DNA of 64,000 nucleotides from positions 3,091-67,090 of the forward strand of contig JBBRWV010000001.1 of the NCBI GenBank assembly GCA_038248985.1, written 5' to 3'. This document shows positions 10,616-45,869 of this stretch, piece by piece; positions within the stretch are counted from its first letter, which is position 1; the number at the start of each line of letters is the position of its first letter. Origin of the DNA: Phycisphaerae bacterium. GTDB taxonomy: Bacteria; Planctomycetota; Phycisphaerae; WQYP01. Made by a program: the position numbers and the translations under genes. A model generated the notes under the pieces. The model was not told the origin of the DNA. It made no database searches and saw only the letters and a list, made by a program, of their open reading frames with translations.

Positions 10616-10914
10616 ACGGGGATTATAGCGGAAGTTATGGCGGATGGGGAAAAGGCTGGCGCGGGGAAACTCATCGGGACAGTCGGGGGTGTGGACGGGG
10701 CCGAGGAAGTTTCATGGTCGTTCGGTCAGATCGGAATGGAATTTTGATATTATTTGCTGCAATCGGCGAACGCGGTCGCCGTTAATCATATAATGTGAAG
10801 TTGCTTTTGCGCACGCGAACAGATGGGGTACTAAGCCAGTGTGTTCGGCGCGCGGATCAGCAGCACATGTTCATAAAATTTGATGTGTCTAGAAAAGCGC
10901 AGAACAGGTGATTG

Positions 10915-13383: not shown

Positions 13384-13474
13384 GTAAAGTCGCGGCCACC
13401 GGGTCGCGCACACACGGCATTCACATGTTTCCGATTTTCCGACTTACGATTTCCGAGTTGAAAGGCTAAACACG

Positions 13475-24510: not shown

Positions 24511-24512
24511 GG

Positions 24513-26621: not shown

Positions 26622-28532
26622 ATGGTCCCCGCGATCATTGTCTTCCTCTACCTTGCCGTCGTCCTCTACGTCGGCATCTTCGCTTTCCGTAAATCCAAAA
26701 AAGGCGCCGGTTCCGCCGAGGAATTCTTCGTCGCCAACCGCTCCCTCGGCACCTTCGTCTTCCTCCTCTCCCTCTTCGGCTCCAACATGACCTCCTTCGC
26801 TATCCTCGGCTCCTCCGGCCTCGCCTTCCGCAATGGCATTGGCGTATTCGGACTTATGGCCTCCATCTCCGGCATCGTCATCCCCCTGTCCATCTTCTTC
26901 GTCGGCACCCGCATCTGGGCCCACGGCAAAAAATTCGGACACATGACCCAGGTCCAACTCTTCCGCGACCGCTGGGAAATGGGCCACATCGGCACCGTCA
27001 TTTTCGCCCTCCAAGCCCTCATGCTCATTCCCTACATCATCATCGGCGTCATGGGCGGCGGAGAAACCCTCAACGGCGTCTCCGGAGGCACCGTCCCCTA
27101 CTGGCTCGGCGGCGGCGTCGTCGCCCTCGTCGTCATGTCCTACGTCTTCTTCGGCGGCATGCGCGGCACCGCGTGGGTTAACACCCTCCAAACCCTCATG
27201 TTCCTCGTCTTCGGCACCATCGCCTTCATCATCATCGCCCGCGGCATCGGCGGCTTGGGCGTCACCGTGCAATCCATGGCCGATACCCTCAAGCCCCAGC
27301 CCGCCGCCACGATGCAACCCTCCATGACCGAACGCTTCGCCGCATCCGCTCCCGCATCCACCGCTCTTTCCGCCGCCGCAACATCCCCACCGCGCTCCGC
27401 CATCGCCGCTGCCCCACGCACCGTTCCTCCGCCTGATGGCGCCGTCCTAATTCGCGGCAAAACCAACCCTGCGGATCCCCATGCACAAGATCGCATCGCC
27501 AAAGGTTACTGGGCGTCCTACGCCTTGATTCCCTTGTCTTCCATCATGTTTCCCCACATTGCCATTTTCTGCCTCACCGCCAAAAAACTCAGCAGCTTCC
27601 GCAAAACCGTCATCCTCTACCCCCTGTGCATTCTCGCCATCTGGTTTCCTGCGGTATTCCTCGGCGCGGTCGCTTCGTCCCAACCCGCAGTCATTGCGAA
27701 CCTCGCCATCGAATCCCAGGGATTCCCCGCCTTCCAAACCGCCAATCCGCCAGCCGCCGCCCTCATGCAAAAACTGGCCCACGGTGAAATCACAGCGAAA
27801 GACGCCGCCGCCAAGCCGCTCCTCGCCGGGCCGCTCAAAGGCGAAATGAAAAAACTCGCAAATTCCAACTCCGACGGCGTCATGCTCGACATGCTCCGAC
27901 TCTTCGCCCCCGGCGTTCTCGCCGGCATCCTCGGGGCCGCCATCATGGCCTGCGTCATGGCCTCCGACTCCCAGATCCTCGCTCTCTCCACGATGTGGGC
28001 CGAAGACGTCTACCGCTTCCACGGCGGCACCTCCGAAGCCAAACAGGTCTGGTCCGCCCGCGCCTTCGTCGTCATCATCACCATCATCGCCTACATCATC
28101 GCCCTCGCCGTCCACCAGTATTCCAACATCTTCGAACTCGCCATCCAGTACGCCTTCTCCGGCTACGCCTCCATGGCACCCATCATGCTCGCCGCCCTTT
28201 TCTGGAAACGCTCCACGAAGTGGGGCGCACTCGCCGCCACCCTCTGGATCGCCTTCTCCCTTCTCGGCATCACCATCATCCAGGCCTACACAGTCTCCGC
28301 CGCGCCGGTCGTCGCGACCCAACCCCCCAACATCATCTTCTCCCTCGGCAATCTCCCCATCCTCCTCCGCGAATACAACCGCGTTTCCTTCACCGAATTC
28401 CGCTTCCTCATTGTGCTCCCCATGTTCATTGGCTCCTGCCTCTGCGTCTACTTGGGCTCTATCCTCACCCAACCTCCGTCACTTGCCACAATCCACCGCT
28501 ACTTCCCGCGCAAATCTCCTCTCCTTCACTGA
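26622..28532 (+). CDS. Sodium:solute symporter (SSS) family transporter with an unusual ~70-aa low-complexity Ala/Pro/Ser-rich insertion
   Basis: The N-terminus FFVANRSLGTFVFLLSLFGSNMTSFAILGSSGLAFRNG matches SSS-family N-terminal conservation, with 13+ TM segments. The insertion PQPAATMQPSMTERFAASAPASTALSAAATSPPRSAIAAAPRTVPPPDG is mid-protein. Confidence 0.85.
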   Translation: MVPAIIVFLYLAVVLYVGIFAFRKSKKGAGSAEEFFVANRSLGTFVFLLSLFGSNMTSFAILGSSGLAFRNGIGVFGLMASISGIVIPLSIFFVGTRIWAHGKKFGHMTQVQLFRDRWEMGHIGTVIFALQALMLIPYIIIGVMGGGETLNGVSGGTVPYWLGGGVVALVVMSYVFFGGMRGTAWVNTLQTLMFLVFGTIAFIIIARGIGGLGVTVQSMADTLKPQPAATMQPSMTERFAASAPASTALSAAATSPPRSAIAAAPRTVPPPDGAVLIRGKTNPADPHAQDRIAKGYWASYALIPLSSIMFPHIAIFCLTAKKLSSFRKTVILYPLCILAIWFPAVFLGAVASSQPAVIANLAIESQGFPAFQTANPPAAALMQKLAHGEITAKDAAAKPLLAGPLKGEMKKLANSNSDGVMLDMLRLFAPGVLAGILGAAIMACVMASDSQILALSTMWAEDVYRFHGGTSEAKQVWSARAFVVIITIIAYIIALAVHQYSNIFELAIQYAFSGYASMAPIMLAALFWKRSTKWGALAATLWIAFSLLGITIIQAYTVSAAPVVATQPPNIIFSLGNLPILLREYNRVSFTEFRFLIVLPMFIGSCLCVYLGSILTQPPSLATIHRYFPRKSPLLH

Positions 28533-28558
28533 CCCCTAACCCCTGACTCTGGCCCCTT

Positions 28559-29863
28559 ATGTCGCTCAACATCACCATCCTCGCCGCCGGTGCCGCCGGC
28601 ATGTATTGCGGCTCCTGCCTGCGCGACAACGCCCTCGCCGCCTCACTCCTCCAACTCGGCCACCGCGTCACCCTCCTCCCCCTCTACACACCCCTCCGCA
28701 CTGATACCCCCGACGTCTCCAACCCCCACATCTTCTACGGCGGCATCAACGTCTACCTTCAACACGCCTCCAAACTCTTCCGCATCACCCCCCGCATCTT
28801 CGACTGGCTCTTCGACCGCCCCTTCCTCCTCACCATGGCCGGTTCCATGGGTGCCGGCACCCACCCCTCCAAACTCGCCTCCCTCACCCGCGACATCCTC
28901 CTCGGCTACAACGGCCCCACCCACAAAGAACTCCGCCGCCTCATCGCCTTTCTCGCCTCCGACATCCAACCCAACATCATCACCCTCCCCAATCTCATGT
29001 TTGCCGGCATGGCCCAGGCCTTCGTCGAAAAACTTCACTGCCCCGTCATCTGCGAACTCACCGGCGAAGATCTCTTCCTCGACGCCATGGCCGAATCCGA
29101 CCGCAACAACATCCGCGCCCTCATCCGCCAAACCACTCCCCACATCGCCCAGTTTGTCGCCACCTCCCACTACTACGCCCAAAAAATGTCCACCTACCTC
29201 GACCTCCCTCCCGAAAAAATCACCATCATCTACCCCGGCCTCCCCGGCGAAATGCTCGACACCCCCAAATCTCCCTCCTCACCCCTGAGTCCTCAACACT
29301 TGAATCTCACCTACCTCGCCCGCATCTGTCCCGAAAAAGGCCTCGACCAACTCGCCGACGCCTTCCTTCTCCTGCAAAAACTCCCCCACACCGATCACAT
29401 CCACCTCCACTACGCCGGCTACCTCGGCCCCGCCTACAAAGCCTGGCACCATGCCCTGCAACAGCGCCTGCACCACGCCGGCCTCGCCGCCCGCGTCCAT
29501 TACCACGGCACCGTCGACCTCGCCGGAAAAATATCCCTCCTCGATAACGCCCACCTCTTTTGCGTCCCCACTCACTATCCCGAATCCAAAGGCATCTTCG
29601 TCCTCGAAGCCCTCTCCCGCGGCGCCCCCGTCCTCGCCCCCAACCACGGCTCATTCCCCGAGATCGCCCAACTCACCAGCGCCCTCGACCTCACCCCGCC
29701 CCACAACCCCCAACTCCTCGCCGAAAAAATCCACTCCCTCCTTCACAATCCGCAGCGCCTCCAATCCCTCTCCCAGAACGCCCGCCCCTCCATCGAAACA
29801 CACTTTACCGCCCGACACATGGCCACCCAGTTCGCTAAACTCTGCATCCAACTGCAAAACTAA
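28559..29863 (+). CDS. Glycosyltransferase family 1 (GT4-like, group 1)
   Basis: C-terminal GT-B domain with LFCVPTHYPESKGIFVLEALSRGAPVLAPNHGSFPEI (E-x7-E-like motif region). Confidence 0.8.
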   Translation: MSLNITILAAGAAGMYCGSCLRDNALAASLLQLGHRVTLLPLYTPLRTDTPDVSNPHIFYGGINVYLQHASKLFRITPRIFDWLFDRPFLLTMAGSMGAGTHPSKLASLTRDILLGYNGPTHKELRRLIAFLASDIQPNIITLPNLMFAGMAQAFVEKLHCPVICELTGEDLFLDAMAESDRNNIRALIRQTTPHIAQFVATSHYYAQKMSTYLDLPPEKITIIYPGLPGEMLDTPKSPSSPLSPQHLNLTYLARICPEKGLDQLADAFLLLQKLPHTDHIHLHYAGYLGPAYKAWHHALQQRLHHAGLAARVHYHGTVDLAGKISLLDNAHLFCVPTHYPESKGIFVLEALSRGAPVLAPNHGSFPEIAQLTSALDLTPPHNPQLLAEKIHSLLHNPQRLQSLSQNARPSIETHFTARHMATQFAKLCIQLQN

Positions 29864-29881
29864 AACCCACTCAAACTCTCT

Positions 29882-30592
29882 TTGATAGAATCACACACTA
29901 TGCAAATCGAAATCACCAACCTCTCCAAGTCCTACCCGACCCCCACCAACCCCCTCGAAATCCTCCGCGACCTCACCCTCCTCATCCCCTCCGCACAATC
30001 CACCGCCATCCTCGGACCCTCCGGCTCCGGAAAATCCACCCTCCTCAACATCCTCGGCACCCTCGACACTCCCACCTCCGGCTCCGTCGCCTTCCTCCCC
30101 CGCGACCGCTCCTCCCCGCTTAGCCCCCTCACATTCGCCCCCGCCGCCCTCGCCCAATTTCGCGCTGCCTACATCGGCTTCGTCTTCCAGGACCACCACC
30201 TCCTTCCCCAGCTCAACGCCCTCGAAAATATCCTCCTCCCCAAACTCGCCCTCGGTGGGGGGGCTGCATCTTCCAAAGAATCCTCCGATCGCGCCGCCTG
30301 GCTCCTCGCCCGCATCGGCCTCGAATCCCGCCGCTCCCACCTCCCCACCCAACTCTCCGGCGGCGAACGTCAACGCATCGCCATCGCCCGCGCCCTCATG
30401 AACGCCCCCTTCCTCCTCCTCGCCGACGAACCCACCGGCAACCTCGACCCCCACACCGCCGACTCCATCATTTCCCTCCTCCTCTCCATCGCCACCGAAA
30501 CCGCCGCCACCCTCATCGCCGTCACCCACAACCCCGCCCTCGCCGAGCGCTTTCAAAAATCCTACACCATGCACAACGGCCAACTCGCCTGA
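29882..30592 (+). CDS. ABC transporter ATP-binding protein, LolD/MacB/FtsE-like
   Basis: Walker A GPSGSGKSTLLN, Q-loop, signature LSGGERQRIAIARAL, Walker B LLLADEPTGNLD and H-loop VTHN. The start could also be ATG 29900. Confidence 0.9.
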   Translation: MIESHTMQIEITNLSKSYPTPTNPLEILRDLTLLIPSAQSTAILGPSGSGKSTLLNILGTLDTPTSGSVAFLPRDRSSPLSPLTFAPAALAQFRAAYIGFVFQDHHLLPQLNALENILLPKLALGGGAASSKESSDRAAWLLARIGLESRRSHLPTQLSGGERQRIAIARALMNAPFLLLADEPTGNLDPHTADSIISLLLSIATETAATLIAVTHNPALAERFQKSYTMHNGQLA

Positions 30593-30650
30593 TAAAAACA
30601 AATCCCACGTTGTCCTTCCTTCCCCCTGCGTCAAACGTGAAGCTTGAAAC

Positions 30651-33600
30651 TTGAAACTTCGCACCCTCATCTTCCGCACCCTCGCCCACTACCGCGCCCT
30701 CAACGCCGCGCTCCTCCTCGCCATCGCACTCGCCACCGCCGTCCTCACCGGCTCCCTCCTCGTCGGTGATTCCGTCCGCCATTCCCTTCGCACCCTCGCC
30801 ACCCAACGTCTCGGCCCCGTCGAATCCGTCCTCCTCGCTCCCGATTTCGTCGACATCTCCCTCGTCGAACGCCTCAACGCCGATCCCGATTTCGTCGCCT
30901 TCTACGGCACCGCTCACGCCGGCATCACTCTCCAAGGCCGCATCGCCGATGTCGCCACCAATCTCTCCGCCTCCTCCGTTTCCGTTTTCGCAATCGATCA
31001 CCCCGACTCCCAAATCCCTGCCGGCAAAACCATTCTCAATAATTCCCTCGCCGACCTCCTCAACCCCGCCCCCGACGCCGCGCTCCACCTCACCATCCCC
31101 GCGCCCGTCAGCATCCCCCTCGACGCCACCCTCGCCCGCCGTTCGCGCTCGGACATCCTCGCCGCCGCCAACGTCTCTCTCGACCGCATTGTCTCTGGCC
31201 CCAGCTTCCTCTCCCTGTTCTCCCTCGCCCCCTCGCAACGCTCCCCGCGCAACCTCTGGCTGAACCTTCGCGATCTCCAATCCGCCATCGACCGCCCGCA
31301 CGCCGCGAATTTCTTCATCTTCACGCGCGACAAACCTTCCGCATTGCCACCTCCCACCCGATCCTCCTCCGACGCCCTCAAAAAACACTTCACCCTCGCC
31401 GACTACCATCTCGCCCTCCAGAAAAACCCCGCCACCGCGCAACTTGATCTCACCTCCACATCCACGTACCTCCGCCCCTCCGTCCTCACCGCCCTGCAAA
31501 AAATCGCCCCCCACGCCCAGCTCTTCTCCACCAACCTCCTCACCCAAGTCACCCTCGCGCCCCCCCCGTCTCAGCCCTCTGCCCCCACACCTCAGCCTCT
31601 CCATTACGTAATCGCCACCGCCACCAACGCGCCCCTCACCGGCAGCGGTGGGGGGGAGGGGGCGGCCCTCAACGACCACGAAGTGGCCATCAACCAGTGG
31701 ACCGCCGACCAGCTTCACGCCAAAGTCGGCGACACCCTCTCCTTCGCATTCCTGCGCCGCATCCCGGATGGTACCTTGCGGGAAATGCCCTCCTCCAAAT
31801 CCTTCACCATCGCCGCCATCCTCCCCCCCGATCATCCCCTCGCCACCGATCCCGCGCTTACCCCCAACTACCCCGGCCTGACCGATTCCGATTCCGTCGC
31901 CGATTGGTCCCCTCCCGAAGGCTTCCCCTTCAATCCCAAACTCGTCACCCCCGCCGATGAAGACTATTGGAAAGACCATCGGGCCGCCCCCAAAATCTTC
32001 CTCCCCCTCTCCGCCTCCAACCTCTGGGCCACCCCCCTGGGCACCATCACCTCTGCCCGCCTGCCGGTGGAAATCCCTCCCGAAAATCCCCAATCAGCAA
32101 TGGGCCATTGGCCGTCGGCAATATTGCAGGCCCTCAACCCCGCCGACTTCGGCTTCTCCTTCCAACCCCTCCGCAAGCAGCAACTCGCCGCCGCCTCCGG
32201 CTCCACCGATTTCTCCGCCCTCTTCCTCGGCTTCTCCTTCTTCCTCATCTTCTCCGCCCTCTGCCTCCTTGCCCTCCTCGCCAAACTCGCCGTCGAACAA
32301 CGCCTCCCCCAACTCGGCCTCCTCGCCTCCCTCGGCTTCTCTCCCCAAAAAATCACCCGCTCCCTCCTCGCGGAATTCCTCTCCCTCGCCCTCCTCGGCA
32401 CCCTCCTCGGCACACTCGCCGCCATCGTCTACACCGCCCTCATCATCCACCTCCTCACCACTTGGTGGCTCCCCGCCGTCGGCACCACCGCCCTGCACCT
32501 CCATCTCTCTTCTGCCTCCCTCCTCCAAGGCCCCGCCATCTCCCTCTTCATCACCGCCCTCACCCTCTTCCTCTCCCTCCGCAAATACGCCCACCGTTCC
32601 CCCATCTCCCTCCTCACCGGTACGCCTCCACAAAAAATCAGCACGCGCAAACCGCCTCTCGCTCCCCCCAAAAAAACCTTGAAAATTGTACCTTGTACCT
32701 TGAACCTTCGCCGCCTCGCCTCCCGCAACAACCGCCTCCACCCCACACGCTCCTTCCTCATCATCGCCCTCCTCGCCTCCGCCTCCTTTCTCCTCGTCCT
32801 CGTCGCCTCCATGAAGCAACTCCCACCTGCAGACCCCTCCCTCACCCCCTCCGGCACCGGCGGCTTCCGCCTCATCCTCACCGCCGACATCCCCCTCCTC
32901 GGCAATCTCAACACCCGCGAGGGCCGCCAACTTCTCGCCCTCAAAGACCCCCACAACCCCCTCCTCTCCCGCGCCCACTACACCAACCTCCGCGCCTCCC
33001 CTGGCCAGGACATCTCCTGCCTCAACATGACCCAACCCACCCAACCCGCCATCCTCGAATTTCCCCCCGGCATCCTGTCCCGATTTCTCATCTCCTCACC
33101 TCCCACACCTTTAGCAGAACTCCGCAATCTCTTAACCCCTCTCACCGGCCCTATCCCCGTCTTCGCCGACCAGGACACCGCCCAGTACATCCTCCACCTC
33201 CACTGCGGCGACTCTCTCCCCTTCACCGATCAATCCGGCCAACCCCGCACCCTCCAACTCGACGCCACGCTCAGCGGCTCCATTTTTCAATCCCAACTCC
33301 TCATGGACTCCGCCCATTTCTCCGCCCTCTTCCCCCTCCAAACCGGCTACTCCGTCGTCCTCATCGAATGTCCCGAGGAAGACGCACTCCCCCTGCAAAA
33401 ACTTCTCGAATTCGAACTCGCCGATTTCTCTGTCTCCGTCGAACCCACCACCGCCCGACTCGCCCGCTACAAAGAAGTCGCCAACACCTACCTCGCCACC
33501 TTCCAATCTCTCGGCAGCCTCGGTCTCCTCCTCGGCACCCTCGGCCTCGCCATCGTCCTCCTCCGCTCCACCCTCGAACGCCGCGCCGAACTCGCCCTCC

Positions 33601-33854
33601 TCCTCGCCCTCGGCTTCACCAAATCCTTCCTCACCCGCCTCCTCCTCCTCGAAAATGCCTCCCTGCTCCTCGTCGGCCTCACCCTCGGCACCCTCCCCGC
33701 CCTCTCCCTCGCCCTCTTCACCCCCCGCCCCCTCAACTTCCCCGCCCTCGCCCTCTCCTTCACCGCCATCCTCCTCGCCGGCCTCCTCTCTCTCCTCCTC
33801 GCTCTCCCCCTCGCCACCAAATCCCTCACCCCCGCCTCCCTCCGCAACCACTAA
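30651..33854 (+). CDS. Large ABC transporter permease with two FtsX-like domains (MacB/YbbP-type)
   Basis: Internally duplicated: N-terminus LKLRTLIFRTLAHYRALNAALLLAIALA and a mid-protein counterpart. The C-terminal FtsX helices end in ELALLLALGFTKSFLTRLLLLENASLLLVGLTLG. TTG start per ORF track. Confidence 0.85.
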   Translation: MKLRTLIFRTLAHYRALNAALLLAIALATAVLTGSLLVGDSVRHSLRTLATQRLGPVESVLLAPDFVDISLVERLNADPDFVAFYGTAHAGITLQGRIADVATNLSASSVSVFAIDHPDSQIPAGKTILNNSLADLLNPAPDAALHLTIPAPVSIPLDATLARRSRSDILAAANVSLDRIVSGPSFLSLFSLAPSQRSPRNLWLNLRDLQSAIDRPHAANFFIFTRDKPSALPPPTRSSSDALKKHFTLADYHLALQKNPATAQLDLTSTSTYLRPSVLTALQKIAPHAQLFSTNLLTQVTLAPPPSQPSAPTPQPLHYVIATATNAPLTGSGGGEGAALNDHEVAINQWTADQLHAKVGDTLSFAFLRRIPDGTLREMPSSKSFTIAAILPPDHPLATDPALTPNYPGLTDSDSVADWSPPEGFPFNPKLVTPADEDYWKDHRAAPKIFLPLSASNLWATPLGTITSARLPVEIPPENPQSAMGHWPSAILQALNPADFGFSFQPLRKQQLAAASGSTDFSALFLGFSFFLIFSALCLLALLAKLAVEQRLPQLGLLASLGFSPQKITRSLLAEFLSLALLGTLLGTLAAIVYTALIIHLLTTWWLPAVGTTALHLHLSSASLLQGPAISLFITALTLFLSLRKYAHRSPISLLTGTPPQKISTRKPPLAPPKKTLKIVPCTLNLRRLASRNNRLHPTRSFLIIALLASASFLLVLVASMKQLPPADPSLTPSGTGGFRLILTADIPLLGNLNTREGRQLLALKDPHNPLLSRAHYTNLRASPGQDISCLNMTQPTQPAILEFPPGILSRFLISSPPTPLAELRNLLTPLTGPIPVFADQDTAQYILHLHCGDSLPFTDQSGQPRTLQLDATLSGSIFQSQLLMDSAHFSALFPLQTGYSVVLIECPEEDALPLQKLLEFELADFSVSVEPTTARLARYKEVANTYLATFQSLGSLGLLLGTLGLAIVLLRSTLERRAELALLLALGFTKSFLTRLLLLENASLLLVGLTLGTLPALSLALFTPRPLNFPALALSFTAILLAGLLSLLLALPLATKSLTPASLRNH

Positions 33855-33917
33855 AATTCAGCAATGCGTCGCCTGATCTCACCGGCAAATGGAGAAAATT
33901 CATTGACGTCCGGGGTT

Positions 33918-33946
33918 TGTTCGGTACACTGAACAGCATACGAACA
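33918..33946. promoter_or_regulatory. Putative LexA (SOS) operator upstream of imuA: GAAC-N7-GAAC direct repeat overlapping a TGTTC-N8-GAACA palindrome
   Basis: tgTTCggtacactGAACAgcatacGAACaa lies 15-43 bp upstream of ATG 33961. RBS AAGGAA at 33950-33955. GTTC/GAAC-N7 repeats are the LexA box form used by alphaproteobacterial imuA-imuB-dnaE2 cassettes. Confidence 0.45.
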
Positions 33947-33960
33947 AACAAGGAATCCCC

Positions 33961-34733
33961 ATGCCTGTTCCCTCCGCCATCCTCCAAGATCCACGCTTCC
34001 AACTCATCACCGCTGACACCTTGCCCCCTGCGCTTATTGAAAATCCTCTCCACCCCCAACCCCGCCAAATTCACGAGTGGTTTCTGGAAAATAATCTCCC
34101 CACCTCACCCACCACCTCGCCTCCCACCTGGTTCCCCCCCTCCACCTCCTGGCCCTGGTGGCCCGCGAAGTATCTTTACCCCGCCCCGGACATATCCTCT
34201 GGATTGGCCGCAGATGTTGGCCCACCTTTCAAATGCTCTCCGATCCCGTGGCCCACAGCGCCCTGCTTCAACACAGCATCTTCCTTGACCCCGCCACCGA
34301 TGATGAACGCTTCTGGGCCATTGGCCAGGCCTTCCGCTGCCCCGGCGTCCGCGTCGTGGTCGCCGATGGAGCGAACCTTTCCCCCACCCTCAGCCGACGC
34401 CTCCAATTGGCCGCCGAAGCGGGTCACACCGTCGGATTATTGGCCCGCCCCTTGTGGGAACAAGATGTCCCCTCCTGGGCCCACGCACGCTGGCTCGCGA
34501 AACCCCAACCCTCCGGGCTTGCCTCTTCCCCGGGCGCATCTTCCTGGCAAATTGAACTCCTGTGCTGCAAAGGGCACCCAGCGGGCCACGACGCTTCGCC
34601 GCAATGGATATTGGATTGGAAATACGAGGTGTTCCGTGGAACAAATACTTTCCATCTTTCTACCCTCCTGGGATGTGGATCTGCATCAACGCAAATCCCC
34701 GCCCCCCAAAAATCCAGTCTTAAAATCGCGTAG
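33961..34733 (+). CDS. imuA: ImuA (SulA/RecA-like mutasome component), apparently frameshifted. The N-terminus is in frame 1 (33961 to ~34136) and the rest in frame 3 (to 34733), with a C7 homopolymer at 34134-34140.
   Basis: Frame 3 carries the ImuA hallmark VVVADGANLSPTLSRRLQLAAEAGHTVGLLARP and ILWIG...ERFWAIGQAFRCPG. The frame-1 start (ATG 33961, good RBS, SOS box) encodes TLPPALIENPLHPQPRQIHEWFLE, resembling the ImuA N-terminal region. Inserting one C into the C7 tract fuses both parts into a ~258-aa ImuA-sized protein. Confidence 0.7.
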
Positions 34734-36171
34734 GCCCGCCCTCCTTCTCGTCACCCCTCACTCACTACAGCAACGGGTGGCACGCTGCTGCCCGCTCGCC
34801 CGCCACGCCGGCATCACCCCCGGCATGAATCTGGCCGAAGCCCGCGCCCTCTGTCCCGTACATATCGCTCCTTTCGATCCCCCACGCAGCCGCAAAACCC
34901 TCGAACTTCTCGCCCAGTGGGCCCTCCGTTTCTCCCCCGTGGTCTCCGTTGATCCCACCCCCTGGGGCTACTACACCGACCCCTGCCCCGATGGACTCCT
35001 CCTCAATGTCACCGGTGAAGCCCCTCTCTTTGGAGGCGAACCCATCTTGCTCACCGAAATTCGCACGCAGTTGCAGCGCCTTGGCTTTGCCTCACGCCTC
35101 GCTGTCGCCCCCACCGTCGGAGCCGCCTGGGCCATCGCCCATTTCGGCCCTCATTCCACGTCCATCCTTTCTCATGAACACCTTCAAAATGCCCTTGCTC
35201 CTCTCCCCGTTGCTTCCTTGCGGATCACCCCCGAACTCTGCACGGCCATGCGCGATGTCGGCATCGAATACGTTCGTCACCTCCTCGCGATCCCCCGGCC
35301 AAATCTCCTGGTGCGCTATGGTAAAGAATTGCTCCTGCGCCTCGATCAAGCCTTTGGACGCACTCCCGAACTCGTCACCCCCATTCACCCCACCGCCCCC
35401 CTTCAGGCCTCCCGCGTGTTTGAGGGACCCGCCATACAAATCGAAGCCATCCTCTTAACCGTCCAAACATTGCTCGAAGATCTCACCCACCATCTCCTCC
35501 AACAAGAAAGCGGTGTGCGGGGCCTCCGCCTAGAATTGCTTCGCGCCCACGCCCCACCCGTCTTTCAGGAATGGATATTGGCACGCCCCAGCCGCGATAA
35601 AAAACATCTCTGGGAATTGCTACGCACCAAAGTCGAACGCCTGCACCTCGGGTACGGCGTCGAAGCCGTGAAGATGACCGCCTACTGGACGGAAGCCATC
35701 CCCCATCAACAACGGGATGCGTGGGAAACCGCAAATGACCATGACGAATCATTCGCCGCCTTGCTCGATACCCTCATCGGGCGCTGGGGTTCCAATCGCG
35801 TATTGTCCCCCCGCACCGTCGCCTCCCACACCCCCGAGGTCGCCCGCCAGTTTCGTCCCCTCACTGAAAAATCCGCCCCACCCGCCGACTTGGCCCTCCT
35901 CGATCGCCCCTCCGTCCTCTTTGATCCACCCGAACCCGCCGAGGCCTTTGCCCTCCAACCCGATCGTCCCCCCGTTTATCTCCGCTGGAAAGGCCAGGGC
36001 CATGAGCTCCTCACCGGCCAGGGCCCCGAACGCATTGTCACCGAATGGTGGGGTGCCCATCGTTCCAGCACCCGCGATTACTACAAAGTGCAAATCCTCG
36101 ATGGATCCTGGATCTGGACTTTTCAGGAAGTGGAAACCGGACGTTGGTTCATTCACGGTCTGTGGGCCTAG
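34720..36171 (+). CDS. imuB: ImuB (Y-family polymerase-like mutasome protein). The start codon is uncertain and overlaps the imuA stop.
   Basis: LLLVTPHSLQQRVARCCPLARHAGITPGMNLAEARALCP...LELLAQWALRFSPVVSVDP...LLNVTGEAPLFGG matches the ImuB/Y-family N-terminus. There is no canonical ATG/GTG/TTG in frame near the expected start, and the first in-frame GTG at ~34785 looks too late. Confidence 0.75.
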   Translation, partial: LKSRRPALLLVTPHSLQQRVARCCPLARHAGITPGMNLAEARALCPVHIAPFDPPRSRKTLELLAQWALRFSPVVSVDPTPWGYYTDPCPDGLLLNVTGEAPLFGGEPILLTEIRTQLQRLGFASRLAVAPTVGAAWAIAHFGPHSTSILSHEHLQNALAPLPVASLRITPELCTAMRDVGIEYVRHLLAIPRPNLLVRYGKELLLRLDQAFGRTPELVTPIHPTAPLQASRVFEGPAIQIEAILLTVQTLLEDLTHHLLQQESGVRGLRLELLRAHAPPVFQEWILARPSRDKKHLWELLRTKVERLHLGYGVEAVKMTAYWTEAIPHQQRDAWETANDHDESFAALLDTLIGRWGSNRVLSPRTVASHTPEVARQFRPLTEKSAPPADLALLDRPSVLFDPPEPAEAFALQPDRPPVYLRWKGQGHELLTGQGPERIVTEWWGAHRSSTRDYYKVQILDGSWIWTFQEVETGRWFIHGLWA

Positions 36172-36178
36172 GTGCAAT

Positions 36179-39100
36179 ATGCCCGAAATCCAGCATTCTA
36201 AAATCCTCCCCGACGTCACCTTCACCAAGCCTCCCCCCGCCGCCGTGCCCTATGCCGAACTCCAGGTGACCACCAACTTCTCCTTTCTCCGCGGCGGCAG
36301 CCATGCCGAAGAAATCATCGCCCGCGCCGGAGAACTCGGTTGTCGTGCTGTCGCCATCACCGATATCAACACCCTCGCCGGCATCGTCCGCGGAAAATCC
36401 GCCGCCCGCAAAGCCGAAATTCAATACATCGTCGGCTGCCACCTTCAAGTCCAAGCCGTCCTCGGAACCCTCACCTCCGTCCCCGCTTCCTTGCCCTATA
36501 TCTCTTTGCTCGTATATCCCACCGATAGAGACTCCTATGGGCGCCTCTGCCGATTGCTCACCTTTGGCAAACGCCGCGCCGCCAAAGGCCAGTGCCATTT
36601 GAATCTTCAGGATGTCGTCGATCACCACCAGGGATTGCTCGCCGTCGTCCTGCCACCCCCGCTTATTTCTGACGCCTTTCACGAAATCCTTCAGACCCTC
36701 CAACACATCTTTGACGACGACCGCCTCTCCCTGGCCGCCTCCTGTTCCTATGACGGACACCACCATCACCGCCTGGCCCAACTCTCTGCCCTCTCTCAAT
36801 TACTTTCCATCCCCTTGGTCGCGACCAACGACGTTCACTATCACATCCCCCAGCGCAAACCCTTACAGGATGTCCTCACCTGTATCCGCCTCGGATGCAC
36901 CCTTGACGAGGCCGGTTTCGCTTTGTTTGCCAATGCCGAGCGCCACGTCAAAGGCCCCGACGAAATGGCCCGCCTCTTTGCTCAATACCCCCACGCCATT
37001 CAGCGCACCATCCACATCGCCCAACGCGCCGCGGGCTTCTCCCTCGACCAGCTCAAATATGAATACCCCGCCGAGATTTGTCCCCCCGGAAAAACCTTCA
37101 TGCAGCATCTCCGCAACCTCACCTGGGAAGGTGCCGCTAAACACTACCCGGCCGGCCTCCCCGAGATCGTCCGCCAACGCGTTGAACATGAATTTGAACT
37201 GATCGAATCCCTCAACTACCCCGCCTATTTCTTGACCGTCAATGACCTCGTCGCGTTCGCTCGCTCCCGCGGAATTCTCTGCCAGGGCCGCGGTGCCGCC
37301 GCCAATTCCGCCGTCTGCTATTGCTTGGGCATCACCGCCGTTGACCCCGCCCGCTTCGATATGCTCATCGAACGATTCATCAGCAAGGAACGCAATGAAC
37401 CGCCCGACATCGATATCGACTTCGAACACGAACGCCGCGAAGAAGTCATTCAATATCTCTACCAGAAATATGGACGCGATCGCGCCGCTCTCACCGCCGA
37501 AGTCGTCACCTATCGCCGCCGCAGCGCCATCCGCGAAGTCGGTAAAGCCCTCGGCCTCTCCCTCGATTGCGTCGATCGCCTCGCCAAATCCGGCGACTGG
37601 TGGCAAGACGGCATCCTCGACGATGCTCAACTACACGCCCTGGGCTTTGACACCCAGAACCCCACCCTCCGCCAAACCGTACAACTCGCCAGCGAACTCG
37701 TCGGCTTCCCTCGCCATCTCTCACAACATGTTGGCGGATTTGTCATTAGCCAAAAACCCCTCTGCGAAATCGTCCCCATTGAAAACGCCGCCATGCCCGA
37801 CCGCACCATCATTGAATGGGACAAAGACGATATCGATGAAATGGGCATGCTCAAAATCGACGTCCTCGGCCTTGGAATGCTCACCTGTATCCGCAAAGCC
37901 ATTGACTTGGTCAACCAATCCGATCGCCGCGCCGGTGGCCCCGGCATCCTGCAATATCACTCCATCCCTCCCGAAGACCCCCTCGTCTATGACATGCTCT
38001 GCCGGGCCGATTCCGTCGGCGTCTTCCAAGTCGAATCCCGCGCCCAGATGACCATGCTCCCACGCCTTAAACCCTGCTGCTTCTACGACCTCGTTATCGA
38101 AGTCGCCATCGTTCAACCCGGACCCATTCACGGCGGCATGGTCCACCCCTACCTGCGTCGCCGCACCGGTGAAGAACCCGTCGTCTATCCCGATGAACGC
38201 ATCAAAGCCGTCCTCGGCAGAACCCTCGGCGTGCCCCTCTTTCAAGAACAGGCAATGCAAATGTGCATCGTCGCCGCCGGCTTCACCCCCGGCGAAGCCG
38301 ACCTCCTCCGCCGCGCCATGGCCGCCTGGAAACGCCAAGGCGATCTCATCCACCGCTTCGGTAAAAAAATGATCGCCGGCATGACCCACCACGGATACTC
38401 CCTCGAATTCGCCCAACGCTGCTTTCAGCAAATCCAGGGATTCAGCGAATACGGCTTCCCCGAATCCCATGCCGCCAGCTTTGCCTTGCTCGTCTACGTC
38501 TCTGCATGGCTGAAATGCCGACACCACGCCGCCTTCGCCGCCGCCCTCCTCAACAGTCAGCCCATGGGCTTCTATCAACCCGCCCAAATCGTCCGCGATG
38601 CCCAGGAACACGGCGTCACCGTCCGGCCCATTGATGTCAACCACAGCACCTGGGATTCCACCCTCGAATATGATGCCGCGGGAAAAAACCCCATCCTCCG
38701 TCTGGGCATGCGCCTCGTTCACACCTTGCGCCAAACCGAAGCCCAGAAAATTACGGCGGCGGTAGCGCGGGCCGGACCTCTGAAAAACATGCTTGATTTA
38801 TGGCGTTTCAGTGGTGCCCGCGTAGCCACTCTGCGCGCCCTCGCCTCCGCCGACGCTTTTGTCTCCATGAACCTGAATCGCCAAACGGCTCTCTGGTCGG
38901 TGGGCCAACTCAAGGATGCCCCCTTGCCCATGTTCGATGAAATGGACCCCCACGAGGACGCCGCGGAACTCCCCTTTATCCCCCCTCTCACCCGCGTCAT
39001 TCAAGACTATGGAGCCACCGGCTTGTCGCTGAAAGCCCATCCCCTCTCCTTTGCTCGCCCGCAACTGGATCTCCGCCATGTCACCCCCAACGGCGATCTC

Positions 39101-39415
39101 GCCGATGCCGCGCACTGCCCCCACGGACGAAGGCTCGTCGTCGCCGGCCTCGTCCTCGTCCGCCAGCGCCCCGCCACCGCCAGCGGCATCCTCTTCATGA
39201 CCATCGAAGACGAGACCGGCATCGCCAACCTCGTCATTCGCCCCGCCATCTACGACCGTTGGCGCCAATCAATTCGTCACGGCATCACCATCGCCGCCTG
39301 GGGAAAAGTGGAGCGCCAAGGTCAGGTAGTTCACCTCCTCGTCGAACGCGTAAACAATCTCGCGACCCTCATCCAAACCGACCCCCCAAAAATCCACACC
39401 CGCAACTTTCACTAA
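36179..39415 (+). CDS. dnaE2: Error-prone DNA polymerase DnaE2 (ImuC), PolIIIalpha family
   Basis: PHP-domain N-terminus YAELQVTTNFSFLRGGSHAEEIIARAGELGCRAVAITDINTLAGIVRG. PolIII alpha core LKIDVLGLGMLTCI, VGVFQVESRAQM and PGPIHGGMVHPYLRRR, plus a C-terminal OB fold. Length 1078 aa. ATG 36179 follows the imuB stop directly. Confidence 0.9.
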   Translation: MPEIQHSKILPDVTFTKPPPAAVPYAELQVTTNFSFLRGGSHAEEIIARAGELGCRAVAITDINTLAGIVRGKSAARKAEIQYIVGCHLQVQAVLGTLTSVPASLPYISLLVYPTDRDSYGRLCRLLTFGKRRAAKGQCHLNLQDVVDHHQGLLAVVLPPPLISDAFHEILQTLQHIFDDDRLSLAASCSYDGHHHHRLAQLSALSQLLSIPLVATNDVHYHIPQRKPLQDVLTCIRLGCTLDEAGFALFANAERHVKGPDEMARLFAQYPHAIQRTIHIAQRAAGFSLDQLKYEYPAEICPPGKTFMQHLRNLTWEGAAKHYPAGLPEIVRQRVEHEFELIESLNYPAYFLTVNDLVAFARSRGILCQGRGAAANSAVCYCLGITAVDPARFDMLIERFISKERNEPPDIDIDFEHERREEVIQYLYQKYGRDRAALTAEVVTYRRRSAIREVGKALGLSLDCVDRLAKSGDWWQDGILDDAQLHALGFDTQNPTLRQTVQLASELVGFPRHLSQHVGGFVISQKPLCEIVPIENAAMPDRTIIEWDKDDIDEMGMLKIDVLGLGMLTCIRKAIDLVNQSDRRAGGPGILQYHSIPPEDPLVYDMLCRADSVGVFQVESRAQMTMLPRLKPCCFYDLVIEVAIVQPGPIHGGMVHPYLRRRTGEEPVVYPDERIKAVLGRTLGVPLFQEQAMQMCIVAAGFTPGEADLLRRAMAAWKRQGDLIHRFGKKMIAGMTHHGYSLEFAQRCFQQIQGFSEYGFPESHAASFALLVYVSAWLKCRHHAAFAAALLNSQPMGFYQPAQIVRDAQEHGVTVRPIDVNHSTWDSTLEYDAAGKNPILRLGMRLVHTLRQTEAQKITAAVARAGPLKNMLDLWRFSGARVATLRALASADAFVSMNLNRQTALWSVGQLKDAPLPMFDEMDPHEDAAELPFIPPLTRVIQDYGATGLSLKAHPLSFARPQLDLRHVTPNGDLADAAHCPHGRRLVVAGLVLVRQRPATASGILFMTIEDETGIANLVIRPAIYDRWRQSIRHGITIAAWGKVERQGQVVHLLVERVNNLATLIQTDPPKIHTRNFH

Positions 39416-39828
39416 AAAAAAATATCCTTCTCCCGCAGCGCCCGCCCATTCGTATCGACCACGCTTGCGGGGTACTCCGTCGTCGTCGCCCCCCCCCGTA
39501 GGCTCGCCAATCTCCCGATTGGCCGTCATCGTCTCGTCGTCGTCGTCAGGCGACGGCGGTGCTGATGTCGGTGCTACGGACGGCCCAGCAGCAGAGTCGT
39601 CCGTTGAGGGAGACGTTCAAGACCCTGCCCTGCTGACGGTGAGCTGGGCGCGGAAGAATCCGGGAGTGCTGACCGATACGCTGGACAATACTGTTTAAGA
39701 GGGAGGGGCGGTAAACAGTTACGAATGTGTCCTGGAAGGGGGTGGGATTTGGCTTTCGTTTTGGGCGATCACTGGCCGATAGCTAGGCGTAGGTGCCCAC
39801 CAGGTACCTCTGGCCGATGTCATAACTC

Positions 39829-40464
39829 GTGAGCAGGAAGTTTGTCATGTCGATTTTTCTGGATCAGTTGCCGCTCAAGTCGGAGAATGCTCCTGAAACG
39901 CTGGGGGATGCGTTGGAGCAGATACGGGGGCAGATTCCGGAGGGGCGGGTGATCGTGAAGGTGGAGCTGGACGGAAGCGCGGTGGAGGGGCCGGCGCTGA
40001 CGGGGTCGCGTGGCACGACGCTGGCGGGGCGAGCGCTGTCGGTGTCGACGGCGAATCAGCAGGAATTGTCCTGGCAGATGCTGGGGAAACTGCATGCGTT
40101 GATACAGTGGTTGACGCCGCAGCATGGGGAGATTGCCAAGCTGCTGGAGACGGGCAAGACGGCGGCGGCGCTTGGGAAGTTGAGCAATGTGTTGTCGGCA
40201 TGGATGCAGATACAGCAAGCGTATGGCAACCTGGCGGAGATGCAGGGGATTGAGTTGGGGAAATTGATGGTGCGAGAGATTACGGCGGAGGCGGTGATCC
40301 AGGAGTTTGCGGGGCAGTTGCGGGAGATCCACACGGCGCTGCAGGCGCAGGATTTTGTGCTGTTGGGGGATATTTTGCAGTACGAGATGGATGGGGTGGT
40401 GGCGAACTGGACGGCGATTTTGGAGTCGACGCTGGCGGTGGTGGGGGTGCCGGTGGAAAAATAG
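39829..40464 (+). CDS. Hypothetical protein (211 aa, predicted all-helical)
   Basis: Clean ORF with native codon usage. No recognisable family. Confidence 0.5.
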   Translation: MSRKFVMSIFLDQLPLKSENAPETLGDALEQIRGQIPEGRVIVKVELDGSAVEGPALTGSRGTTLAGRALSVSTANQQELSWQMLGKLHALIQWLTPQHGEIAKLLETGKTAAALGKLSNVLSAWMQIQQAYGNLAEMQGIELGKLMVREITAEAVIQEFAGQLREIHTALQAQDFVLLGDILQYEMDGVVANWTAILESTLAVVGVPVEK

Positions 40465-40559
40465 GGGCGTGGGGGTGCTTTAGGGGAAGCGTTTTGGCTA
40501 CAATAGACGGTGTGTTTGCGGACAATTTGATCCGTTAGTTCCGTTTTGGAGCGAATTTC

Positions 40560-40868
40560 ATGCTGAAGTATACGCTGTTGGGACTGGTTGCAATGATGCT
40601 GGGGACGGCTTCCTTCGTGGCGACGGCCGCGGATGACAAGGCGACGACGACGTCGGGGCCGGCGACTTCGCAGGCGGCGAAGGTGGATGTGGGGAACACG
40701 AAATGTATTGTGATGGCAGAGGATGAGGCCGGGGACGGCACGGTGGAGTATCAAGGCAAACTGTATCACATCTGCTGCAAGAGCTGCGTGAAGACGTTCA
40801 ACAAGAATCCGGAAAAATATGTGAAAGCGCTGGAAGCGGGCCCGGCCAAATACGGGGTGACCAAGTAA
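40560..40868 (+). CDS. Secreted YHS/TRASH-like metal-binding domain protein
   Basis: Signal peptide (MLKYTLLGLVAMMLGTASFVATAA). CIVMAEDEAGDG...YQGKLYHICCKSCVKTFNKNPEKY fits the YHS-domain pattern C.V.......Y.G..Y.FC...C...F...PE.Y. Confidence 0.55.
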   Translation: MLKYTLLGLVAMMLGTASFVATAADDKATTTSGPATSQAAKVDVGNTKCIVMAEDEAGDGTVEYQGKLYHICCKSCVKTFNKNPEKYVKALEAGPAKYGVTK

Positions 40869-40883
40869 AGGGAGTGAGGGGGC

Positions 40884-41657
40884 TCAGGGGCTGGGAAGCA
40901 GGGCATCGTCTTCTTCTTCGGAAAAGAAGCGGAGATGGGAGTCGATCGTGCTGGGGGAGACGCTGACGTCGTTGACGACTTCAGTGGCACCTTCGCCGTC
41001 GTATTCATTGTGGTGATAGAGGTTGGGGTCCTGCTGTTCGGGGAGGGATTTTGTTTTGATGAATTCGGCATGTTGATCGGTGTAGAGGACGCACATGCCA
41101 GCGCCGGCCCAGTTGGCGGAGAAGGAGCGGCCTTGTGCGTAGTCGGCGCGATCACCGAGGTAGACGCGCATCTGATCGATATTGCCGGTGCGTTTGCGTT
41201 CGTGATCGTAGCTGAAGGAGCAGTGCCATTTGACCGAGGCGATGTTGGAGGAGTCGATGGTGGCGGGTGTGGTGAGGGTAATTGGGACGCCGCCGATGTC
41301 GGCGAGGATGGGCCAGCCATCGGCGTTGAAGGCGGTGGCGGGCGTATCGGTGGTGTTGGTATTGATGAAGAGTTTGGGGGGGAGGCTGTGGAGCTTGGCG
41401 AGGAGGGCGAGACCGCTGAAGGCGCGGCCGTCTTCGTTGCCATCGGCGAGGTCGGTGGAATGGCGGTTGTCCCATTCAGAGGAATAGGTGGCCATGGCGA
41501 TGCCAATGGCGTGGAGGTGGCCGAGGGTGGCGGTGCGTCGGGATTGTTCGCGGGCGCGGGAGAGGTAAGGGAGGAGGATCGCGATGAGGAGGGCGATGAT
41601 GGCGACGACGACGAGGAGTTCGATGAGAGTGAAGGCGCGAGGGCGACGGTTACGCAT
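40884..41657 (-). CDS. DUF1559 domain protein with prepilin-type N-terminal cleavage/methylation signal (type II pseudopilin-like)
   Basis: N-terminus MRNRRPRAFTLIELLVVVAIIALLIAILLPYLSRAREQSRRTATLGHLHAIGIAMATY is the classic prepilin peptidase motif plus DUF1559 start, a hallmark of Planctomycetes/Verrucomicrobia. Confidence 0.85.
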   Translation of the reverse strand: MRNRRPRAFTLIELLVVVAIIALLIAILLPYLSRAREQSRRTATLGHLHAIGIAMATYSSEWDNRHSTDLADGNEDGRAFSGLALLAKLHSLPPKLFINTNTTDTPATAFNADGWPILADIGGVPITLTTPATIDSSNIASVKWHCSFSYDHERKRTGNIDQMRVYLGDRADYAQGRSFSANWAGAGMCVLYTDQHAEFIKTKSLPEQQDPNLYHHNEYDGEGATEVVNDVSVSPSTIDSHLRFFSEEEDDALLPSP

Positions 41658-41945
41658 GGGGGCCTCGAATAAGGCGAATGGATCAACGGAACAGCCGGGA
41701 GTTTATCGCCAGTGAATTGTTAATGAAATAGATTTGCATGTAAATGTTGGTTGCATTCCCGGGCGGGGTTGCAACCAACGGTCGAGAACGGCGCGGGGGG
41801 CGCGACACGTAAACGAATGTATGGTGTAGCAATGAAGCGGACGAGGAGTTGCAGGCGCTTTCACACGGCGGATGCTTTGGGTACGATGTATCGCTTCGCG
41901 GCGGCAGGTATGTCACCGCACAATGGTTTTCGCACAGAGGCATGT

Positions 41946-45218: not shown

Positions 45219-45869
45219 TTAACGCAGAAAGGTTTGAAGTTCATGCTCAAGGAGACTCATGGGAAGGCCCATGACGTTGGTAAATTCTCCGGCCAGAAGC
45301 GTGATGAACGGATCCGAGGAATGGGCGTCGTCCTGGATGCCGTAGGCACCGGCCTTGCCGCGCCAGAGATGGGAATCGAGATAGTTTTCCAGCCAGGCGG
45401 CGGTGGGGGGGGTGGCATAGCAGACCGAGGTGGCGGTCGCGAGACGTATGTGGTCTCCGCAAAGAAGCGCGATGCCGGTGATGACTTGGTGGGTTTGATC
45501 GAAGAGGCGGATGAGCATGTGGCGGGCGTGGGCGCGATTGCGCGGCTTGTTGAGCACGCGATTGTGGAGAGTCACGATGGTGTCGGCGCCGAGGATGATC
45601 GGCGCCAATTTATTTGAGGAATTTCGTGGAGCGGGAAGCGATTGAAGGTGTCGCTGAACGGCGGCGGCTTTGATGTACGCGAGCGTGGCGGGCCAGATGG
45701 CGATGGGCACATCACGGGGTCGCAGTGCGGGTTCCTTCGCGGGGCTGACTTGCACGGTGAAGGTGTAGCCGGCTTCACGCAGAAGTTGAGCGCGGCGGGG
45801 AGAGGCGGAGGCCAGAATCAGCGGGTGCGGCAGTTTCGCAGCGATCGCGGTTTTTCCGTGCATGCTCAT
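45219..45869 (-). CDS. maf: Maf-like nucleoside triphosphate pyrophosphatase (septum formation protein Maf)
   Basis: N-terminus PLILASASPRRAQLL and later ILGADTIV, GKAGAYGIQD are the Maf signature. The start at 45869 overlaps the upstream GT9 stop by 4 bp. Confidence 0.85.
   Translation of the reverse strand: MSMHGKTAIAAKLPHPLILASASPRRAQLLREAGYTFTVQVSPAKEPALRPRDVPIAIWPATLAYIKAAAVQRHLQSLPAPRNSSNKLAPIILGADTIVTLHNRVLNKPRNRAHARHMLIRLFDQTHQVITGIALLCGDHIRLATATSVCYATPPTAAWLENYLDSHLWRGKAGAYGIQDDAHSSDPFITLLAGEFTNVMGLPMSLLEHELQTFLR

Follow-up and report, generated by a model that had tools for sequence, protein, structure and literature searches.

In Alphaproteobacteria such as Caulobacter crescentus, the imuABC genes stand in fixed order and encode a RecA-like ImuA, a Y-family-like ImuB and the error-prone polymerase DnaE2. 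The alphaproteobacterial LexA box is a direct repeat, GTTC-N7-GTTC, which overlaps the imuABC promoter (PMC4951493). [quoted passage not shown] The Verrucomicrobia-type system of this superphylum combines a core SOS operon with a palindromic LexA site, TGTTC-N4-GAACA.

Homopolymers can set the reading frame of a gene. In Neisseria, Campylobacter and Helicobacter, poly-G or poly-C tracts do so in contingency genes, and repeat-mediated switches in mutS and mutL act on mutator status. Contingency tracts are longer than their coding function requires and differ from read to read and from strain to strain, and lengths of 7–8 nt lie at the low end of those with high switching rates in known loci. 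At homopolymers hit by an indel, "saviour" −1 frameshifting or transcriptional slippage can partially rescue the gene (PMC5009743, PMC4066793). The heptamer C_CCC_CCC was among the efficient ones in E. coli in the study of Sharma et al. (PMC4066793); heptamers without stimulators gave only 2–10 times a background of ~0.05% (PMC4066793). Here, we describe an imuA-imuB-dnaE2 cassette with one base missing from a C tract of imuA, in a 64,000-nucleotide stretch of DNA (the window) from a relative of the Phycisphaerae (Planctomycetota).

The cassette and its promoter

Two of the three genes are intact and, with the elements ahead of the operon, are placed as follows:

33903–33930, plus strand: sigma-70-type promoter, TTGACG-16 nt-TACACT, the sole promoter-like match in 33700–39900
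33931–33945, plus strand: GAAC-N7-GAAC direct repeat, putative LexA operator, an exact match that abuts the −10 box
33950–33955, plus strand: Shine-Dalgarno-like AAGGAA, 6 nt ahead of ATG 33961, read from the sequence
34675–36171, plus strand: imuB, frame 1, starting at GTG 34675 or GTG 34777
36179–39415, plus strand: dnaE2 (imuC), 1078 aa from ATG 36179, equal in length to those of relatives

DnaE2 matched the NCBIfam error-prone DNA polymerase profile NF004225 at 1359.7 bits (cut-off 939) over positions 3–1046 of 1047, and its PHP, DNA_pol3_alpha, finger, HHH_6 and OB domains were all found with Pfam. ImuB scored 31.7 bits against the Pfam IMS domain (cut-off 23.2) and, compared from end to end, shared 54–62% identity with ImuB of cassettes L082, L084 and L085. 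In the alignment, ImuB carries 'LLLVTPHS' and 'DGLLLNVTG' at what we take to be the positions of the D-x-D and S-I-D-E of DinB; judged from these residues, ImuB is a Y-family-like protein whose catalytic acidic motifs appear to be lost. The imuB gene stops at 36171, 7 nt ahead of the dnaE2 ATG, and no canonical imuB start codon was found at the imuA stop. An earlier note on this DNA had recognized a mutasome cassette here, and this assignment stands: dnaE2 belongs to the error-prone family and the operon lies behind a conserved promoter with a direct-repeat box of the alphaproteobacterial type.

The promoter is not peculiar to this genome, since TTGAC-17-TAyCCT, of the same architecture, lies upstream of imuA in L001, L081, L082, L084, L086, L088, L089, L090 and L091. 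At the same place past the −10 box, we found (G/T)AAC-N7-(G/A)AAC in L001, L081, L084, L086, L089 and L091, and TTAC-N7-GAAC in L005. With 4 matches for 2.4 expected, GAAC-N7-GAAC by itself shows no enrichment in the window, and its support comes instead from its conserved position in at least seven orthologous promoters; promoter and operator together are conserved in more than 8 orthologous loci. In L081, L084 and L089, a divergent gene for an SOS-response-associated peptidase (SRAP) shares the same intergenic region. The repeat is most likely the LexA operator of the imuA operon, as its sequence and position suggest. It shares with the alphaproteobacterial box the direct-repeat form and the overlap with the promoter. 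With the Verrucomicrobia-type system it shares GAACA/TGTTC half-sites, TGTTC at 33918–33922 and the first GAACA forming TGTTC-N8-GAACA; the N4 palindrome, in contrast, is absent here, and it is the direct repeat that is conserved in relatives. The earlier note had seen this box together with a strong ribosome binding site ahead of ATG 33961; the box is an exact match, whereas AAGGAA is a moderate site rather than a strong one.

The window as a whole shows an extreme sawtooth in its GC skew; no relevant paper on such a pattern, whether for Phycisphaerae or for bacteria at large, came out of a literature search. The window gave no matches in Rfam or tRNA scans.

The broken imuA reading frame

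The features of imuA and of the frame that runs through it are:

33961–34140, plus strand: 5′ part of imuA, frame 1, residues 1–60, with the conserved HEW strand
34134–34140, plus strand: C7 homopolymer with a one-base deficit; the intact form is C8, TTC CCC CCC CTC for F-P-P-L
34140–34733, plus strand: 3′ part of imuA, frame 3, residues 61–257 of the restored protein
33961–36171, plus strand: 736-aa read-through ORF of the C7 state, joining ImuA 1–60, ~200 out-of-frame residues and ImuB in frame

The imuA reading frame is not intact as deposited, being one base short in the C tract. The C7 run lies exactly where the earlier note had placed it, as confirmed directly in the sequence, and both the ORFs and the homologue alignment divide imuA between frames 1 and 3 at this tract, again as proposed. 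From ATG 33961, frame 1 reads MPVPS...QIHEWFLENN...TWFPP. Frame 3 opens only past the TAA at 34092–34094, carries ...LHLLALVAREV...SRRLQLAAEAG... and ends at the TAG at 34731–34733. Adding one C restores a full-length ImuA of typical size, although of 257 aa and not the 258 first counted. The restored protein aligned end to end with homologues of 240–290 aa, and homologues of 241–273 aa were 44–49% identical to it over 92–98% of its length.

The break sits within a conserved W-x-P-P-L motif, with the junction in the nearly invariant W57/P60 of alignment A1. H38, E39, W40, W57 and P60 are each at least 90% conserved in this alignment, and H38-E39-W40 lie in a confidently modelled core β-strand; the earlier statement that the frame-1 N-terminus lacks hallmarks was therefore wrong. 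In the frame-3 part, all 24 of the 24 invariant columns of A1 are kept. The 166-aa "ImuA" of the deposited annotation represents only part of a gene for 257 aa.

To which family does this protein belong? Its homologues carry the JGI/NCBI names 'protein ImuA' or 'ImuA family protein', and imuA occupies the same cassette position as in the loci of relatives. Residues 103–187 of the restored protein matched NCBIfam ImuA_translesion at 41.5 bits, short of the curated cut-off of 150, and a Pfam search gave no match. By its sequence, the protein is assigned to a divergent ImuA clade. An AlphaFold model predicts a RecA-like fold with strand 36–42 in its confident core; this strand and helix 61–72 fall on either side of the break, which in the model separates core strand β-1 from helix α-1. 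Compared with alphaproteobacterial imuABC, the locus differs in its host, a Phycisphaerae relative, in a divergent and frameshifted imuA, and in a box that is putative.

Origin of the missing base

Local codon usage bears directly on the tract. CCC accounts for 219 of 293 codons of its family, CTC for 444 of 571 and TTC for 130 of 168 (75–78% of each), and because these codons dominate their families, TTC-CCC-CCC-CTC is the default encoding of F-P-P-L here, with a joint probability of ~0.34 from the codon frequencies. In relatives, the tract is C7 in L084, where imuA is intact, C6 in L086, and C5 in L082 and L001; it is interrupted in L085, L081, L088, L089, L090 and L091.

The earlier note had offered a phase-variable switch by slipped-strand mispairing as one of two readings; in such a contingency locus, a maintained tract would turn imuA, and SOS mutagenesis along with it, ON (C8) and OFF (C7 or C9). 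A simple-sequence tract within the ORF does set the frame, since C7 breaks it and C8 restores it, and a run of 7–8 C within the 5′ part of an ORF is the classical contingency architecture, shared with the frame-setting poly-C of known contingency genes; elsewhere the operon shows no decay, as a reversible OFF state would predict. However, the tract is exactly as long as codon bias and composition lead one to expect, and its length is not maintained in related loci. Nor was variation observed: in the protein, genome and metagenome collections searched, the organism was sampled once and a single allele was seen. An exact look-up found no contig with P0001, the deposited 166-aa protein, whose cluster has one member; a scan of genome contigs for a second copy of the locus gave a best match of 42% identity; a metagenome DNA pattern across the tract, permitting C6 to C9, had 0 matches; and the closest non-self protein match to ImuA was 49% identical. 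A literature search on phase-variable imuA found nothing relevant. We consequently consider evolved phase variation very unlikely, although reversible switching at some low rate may occur, any 8-nt C run being slippage-prone.

Could the C7 form instead be read by the ribosome? The tract is an in-phase −1 slippery heptamer (C_CCC_CCC, of the X_XXY_YYZ type, with zero-frame codons at 34135–34137 and 34138–34140), and a −1 slip yields W-F-P-P-L-H-L-L, identical to the homologue-like sequence. Programmed −1 frameshifting on this heptamer, or transcriptional slippage, could then set a low dose of ImuA from a true C7 gene, and the phase is exactly right for one of the efficient E. coli heptamers (PMC4066793), as at "saviour" sites, where the slip also restores the ancestral protein. 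Against this, no downstream stimulatory RNA structure was predicted beyond shuffles (z = 0.09 for 34141–34240; z = −0.28 for 34100–34300), no Shine-Dalgarno-like stimulator was seen upstream, every relative examined has a single-frame ImuA, and an unstimulated heptamer is expected to give only the few-fold rise over background cited above (PMC4066793). Unlike "saviour" slippage, the imuA site has no stimulatory element, is unconserved and has an expected yield below ~1%. We regard such recoding as highly improbable. Taken more broadly, a real C7 kept as a low-dose or reversible state, with ImuA made only through rare −1 slippage or C7-to-C8 reversion, is in our view very unlikely. We also considered the 736-aa read-through ORF as a meaningful product and judged it a chance opening: although codon shuffles left a +1 frame of this length open just 0.8% of the time, such a frame occurred in 5–14% of same-size windows in neighbouring genes, and it is closed in relatives.

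The least probable reading, to which we give almost no credence, is that the frame-1 ORF is irrelevant and ImuA genuinely short, starting at GTG 34158 (191 aa) or ATG 34233 (166 aa). The depositor annotated the 166-aa protein from ATG 34233 as P0001, which matches the translation at 100% identity over its 166 aa, and some ImuA homologues in databases have ~190–215 aa. However, homology to ImuA N-termini extends through the frame-1 segment, in which HEW and W..P are conserved, and the shorter database proteins either are start-codon mis-calls or keep the N-terminal motifs; P0034 (200 aa), for example, is mis-called, with its full N-terminus in frame in locus L086. Because strand 36–42 and helix 61–72 flank the break, the 191-aa and 166-aa products would lack core elements, namely β-1 and part or all of α-1, β-2 and α-2 of the modelled RecA-like core. 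Homologues truly starting near 34158, which the earlier note had named as a result that would overturn its reading, were not seen among the short homologues checked, none of which was genuinely short or likewise broken.

We therefore favour, with good confidence, a standard mutasome operon with an incidental indel in a codon-bias C run of imuA and no evolved switch. An error of the consensus or assembly is given a little under an even chance; that the base is truly missing, in a null or leaky allele that arose very recently or is polymorphic in the sampled population, is nearly as probable. A further C8 run lies at 31560–31567. Elsewhere in the window, Pfam-verified domains contain three more homopolymers of 8 nt, all in frame (G8 at 45405–45412 in Maf, T8 at 46229–46236 in a heptosyltransferase and A8 at 58236–58243 in a phosphodiesterase), which argues against a general homopolymer problem in the assembly and mildly favours a real deletion. 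Scoring the reading frames across the window revealed no same-strand frame switch besides that of imuA, and suspicious adjacent or overlapping ORF pairs checked with Pfam were all separate intact genes with full-length domain matches. Since the invariant residues past the break are kept and imuB and dnaE2 are intact, the lesion is absent or very young.

Consequences for the mutasome

In the reading that we favour, this under-sampled Phycisphaerae relative would possess a damage-inducible imuA-imuB-dnaE2 mutasome operon, transcribed from the conserved sigma-70-type promoter and probably governed by LexA at the GAAC-N7-GAAC repeat. Its imuA would be a normal full-length family gene for a 257-aa protein with a RecA-like fold, in which extreme local C bias writes F-P-P-L as TTC-CCC-CCC-CTC and so would create an incidental C8 run; the deposited C7 would be this run minus one base, with the frame broken. 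If the deletion is real, ribosomes from 33961 would make a 736-aa fusion of ImuA(1–60), junk and ImuB, a native ImuB start would be needed at GTG 34675 or 34777, and −1 slippage on C_CCC_CCC would give trace full-length ImuA, below ~1% by analogy with E. coli reporters.

Were C7 maintained, entry into DnaE2 mutagenesis would be stochastic per cell or lineage, through a slippage-gated or phase-variable SOS mutasome whose OFF state yields the ImuA(1–60)-ImuB fusion; a real and polymorphic C7 would be the first tract-length control of the ImuABC pathway, but present evidence points elsewhere. The finding chiefly corrects an annotation, the operon being otherwise a normal mutasome. It also illustrates how conserved motifs can come to contain slippage-prone homopolymers where compositional bias is extreme. 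Finally, the promoter with (G/T)AAC-N7-GAAC upstream of imuA in Phycisphaerae-related genomes provides a candidate LexA box for a phylum in which the SOS response was described as undocumented in 2016 (PMC4951493).

Identity of the cassette and the break in imuA

The cassette lies on the + strand:

33961–34733, + strand: imuA, read in two frames
34134–34140, + strand: C7 run within imuA
to 36171, + strand: imuB, Pfam IMS match, directly before dnaE2
36179 (ATG)–39415, + strand: dnaE2, 1078 aa, NCBIfam "error-prone DNA polymerase" at 1359.7 bits vs a cut-off of 939

The imuB gene shows 54–62% identity, at full length, to ImuB genes of related cassettes. The imuA gene scores 41.5 bits against NCBIfam ImuA_translesion (cut-off 150), its homologues carry the ImuA label from JGI and NCBI, and they stand first in an imuA-imuB-dnaE2 cassette in all related loci fetched. 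Judged by its sequence, the window ImuA is a divergent family member.

Frame 1 of imuA starts at ATG 33961, 6 nt after AAGGAA, and encodes MPVPSAILQDPRFQLITADTLPPALIENPLHPQPRQIHEWFLENNLPTSPTTSPPTWFPP. Frame 3, closed by TAA at 34092–34094, reads LHLLALVAREV...SRRLQLAAEAG... from the C tract on and stops at TAG 34731–34733. Adding one C to the tract restores a 257-aa ImuA (residue numbers refer to this protein), for which a protein search returned 375 homologues; the closest full-length ones (241–273 aa) show 44–49% identity and cover 92–98% of it. The frame junction falls within a nearly invariant W-x-P-P-L motif (W57 and P60 in the homologue alignment), and the nearly invariant H38-E39-W40 is encoded by the frame-1 part. 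Thus, the earlier note correctly saw imuA as split at the C7 tract, and the break can be placed within the tract; an intact gene would read TGG TTC CCC CCC CTC here (i.e., a C8 run).

An AlphaFold model of restored ImuA (mean pLDDT 68, core >85) has a RecA-like fold, with a Foldseek E of ~4e-8 to RecA structures. Because strand 36–42 (QIHEWFL) is encoded 5′ of the break and helix 61–72 is encoded 3′ of it, both short products (the 191-aa ORF starting at GTG 34158 and P0001, deposited at 166 aa and starting at ATG 34233) are predicted to miss parts of the core and probably do not function.

Readings of the C7 run

Is the C tract a phase-variation switch of SOS mutagenesis, one of two possibilities raised in the earlier note? 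In + strand genes at 26.5–39.4 kb, CCC encodes 219 of 293 Pro, CTC 444 of 571 Leu and TTC 130 of 168 Phe, so TTC-CCC-CCC-CTC is the default encoding of F-P-P-L here and needs no selective explanation. Among related imuA loci, tract length varies and is not maintained:

L084: CAC CCC CCC ATG (C7 in an intact gene)
L086: CAC CCC CCT CTC
L082: CCT CCC CCG
L001: CAT CCC CCG
L085: TTC CCG CCG
L081, L088, L091: CAT CCG CCG

No frameshifted imuA occurs among the relatives examined. Homologues that look short proved to be start mis-calls or to keep N-terminal motifs (in locus L086 the complete N-terminus of P0034, listed at 200 aa, is in frame). The collections searched hold no second sequence of the source organism for comparing ON and OFF alleles. 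The proposed switch is without specific support, and an evolved contingency locus, while mechanistically possible, has no positive support.

Alternatively, full-length ImuA could be made from the C7 allele by −1 slippage: in formal terms the run is an X_XXY_YYZ heptamer in the right phase, slipping by −1 on it would give exactly W-F-P-P-L-H-L-L, and an E. coli survey lists C_CCC_CCC with the efficient heptamers (PMC4066793). Without stimulators, however, heptamer motifs yield only 2–10 times a background of ~0.05%, RNA downstream of the tract folds no better than shuffles (z = 0.09 and −0.28), and all imuA orthologues examined are single frame; slippage on a real C7 allele would provide at most a trace of full-length ImuA. 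Is the missing C, then, an assembly error or a real deletion? In a codon-score frame scan of the window, the imuA switch was the only same-strand frame change, and the adjacent or overlapping ORF pairs tested by Pfam proved to be distinct, intact genes whose domains match over their full length. Three other homopolymers are in frame within verified domains:

45405–45412: G8, Maf domain
46229–46236: T8, heptosyltransferase domain
58236–58243: A8, phosphodiesterase domain

These runs, together with the single frame switch, argue that homopolymers are not a general problem of this assembly, a point slightly in favour of a real deletion. Since imuA, imuB and dnaE2 show no decay, any real lesion would be very young; a consensus error would leave the same undecayed picture. 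We give a consensus error a little under an even chance and put a real null allele, recent or polymorphic, only slightly below it, with programmed readings of C7 taking the remainder.

A real deletion would leave frame 1 without a stop all the way from 33961 to the end of imuB, encoding a 736-aa ImuA(1–60)-junk-ImuB fusion. Because an equally long open frame is somewhat unusual at most (it occurs in 0.8% of codon shuffles but in 5–14% of equal windows in neighbouring genes) and is absent in relatives, we treat its openness as chance and not as marking a meaningful product. No canonical imuB start lies at the imuA stop; the candidates are GTG 34675, whose 59-nt overlap with imuA resembles the 47-nt overlap in L084, and GTG 34777.

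In the nanopore-derived contig of L081, only spurious minus-strand genes are called between imuA and dnaE2 (10001–12236). Its imuB is probably broken by frameshifts in the long-read assembly, a case showing how easily cassette genes are mis-annotated.

Promoter, skew and origin of the cassette

Two elements precede imuA:

33903–33930: TTGACG-16-TACACT, the sole promoter-like match in 33700–39900
33931–33945: GAAC-N7-GAAC, directly after it

By itself the repeat is not enriched in the window (4 matches vs 2.4 expected), and its support comes from recurrence in relatives. TTGAC-17-TA(T/C)CCT followed by (G/T)AAC-N7-(G/A)AAC lies 5′ of imuA in L001, L081, L084, L086, L089 and L091, with a second repeat copy upstream of the −35 box in L001, L081 and L091. 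The L005 promoter has TTAC-N7-GAAC; the TAyCCTAAC part is retained in L082, L088, L090, L010 and L011, where the second half-site is weaker. In L081, L084 and L089, imuA and a divergent gene for SRAP (SOS-response-associated peptidase) share one intergenic region. The window direct repeat has the form of the alphaproteobacterial LexA box GTTC-N7-GTTC and does not match the verrucomicrobial TGTTC-N4-GAACA (PMC4951493). From this form and its retention in relatives, we infer with good support that a putative LexA site probably places the cassette under SOS control.

The + strand has an extreme sawtooth GC skew that declines in a straight line over 0–34 kb, from +0.50 to −0.55 (−0.033 per kb, r2 0.97), jumps upward within ~300 nt at 39.45–39.75 kb, intergenic after dnaE2, and falls linearly again (−0.025 per kb, r2 0.94). 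Skew at third codon positions (GC3) spans +0.80 to −0.87 independently of gene orientation; at the extremes a single base, G or C, makes up as much as 49% of the sequence, and amino-acid composition shifts along. The strong skew at imuA makes C runs frequent there. Relatives behave alike: the slope in L082 is also −0.033 per kb, and |skew| attains 0.3–0.5 in L086, L088 and L091. No description of a sawtooth GC skew in bacteria turned up in the literature searched. Mammalian "N-domain" profiles, similar in shape, have upward jumps at fixed replication origins. The flip site is a 410-nt intergenic stretch, 39416–39825, in which tRNA and Rfam scans found nothing; simple features in or near it are:

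39390–39398: AAATCCACA, matching the DnaA-box consensus at 7/9 positions
39414–39422: A9, overlapping the dnaE2 stop
39489–39497: C9, in the stretch
~39530–39545: (TCG)n run, in the stretch

Very long spurious ORFs are common in non-coding frames of the window because stop codons are scarce on C- or G-rich strands; an example of 773 aa (31967–34288, frame 2) overlaps an FtsX-like gene and the imuA 5′ end. In this genome, genes are poorly predicted by ORF length alone. A single 2525-aa ORF (13388–20965), rich in TPR repeats, has an F5/8 type C (discoidin) domain and a YfiO-like region, and is flanked by TPR proteins (10912–13383 and 24507–26159) and by ExbB and DUF4159 genes.

The imuABC cassette (33900–39415) departs from the skew trend (observed ~−0.3 vs ~−0.67 predicted by regression), its GC3 is 0.66–0.70 vs 0.81 in both flanking genes (28500–33850 and 39826–41700), and the genes beside it change from each related locus to the next (SRAP, MFS, KAS, transposase fragments, FtsX). 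Outlying composition and variable neighbours suggest a mobile or more recently acquired cassette. The locus is a known kind of operon, from a poorly sampled lineage, with one single-base homopolymer indel.
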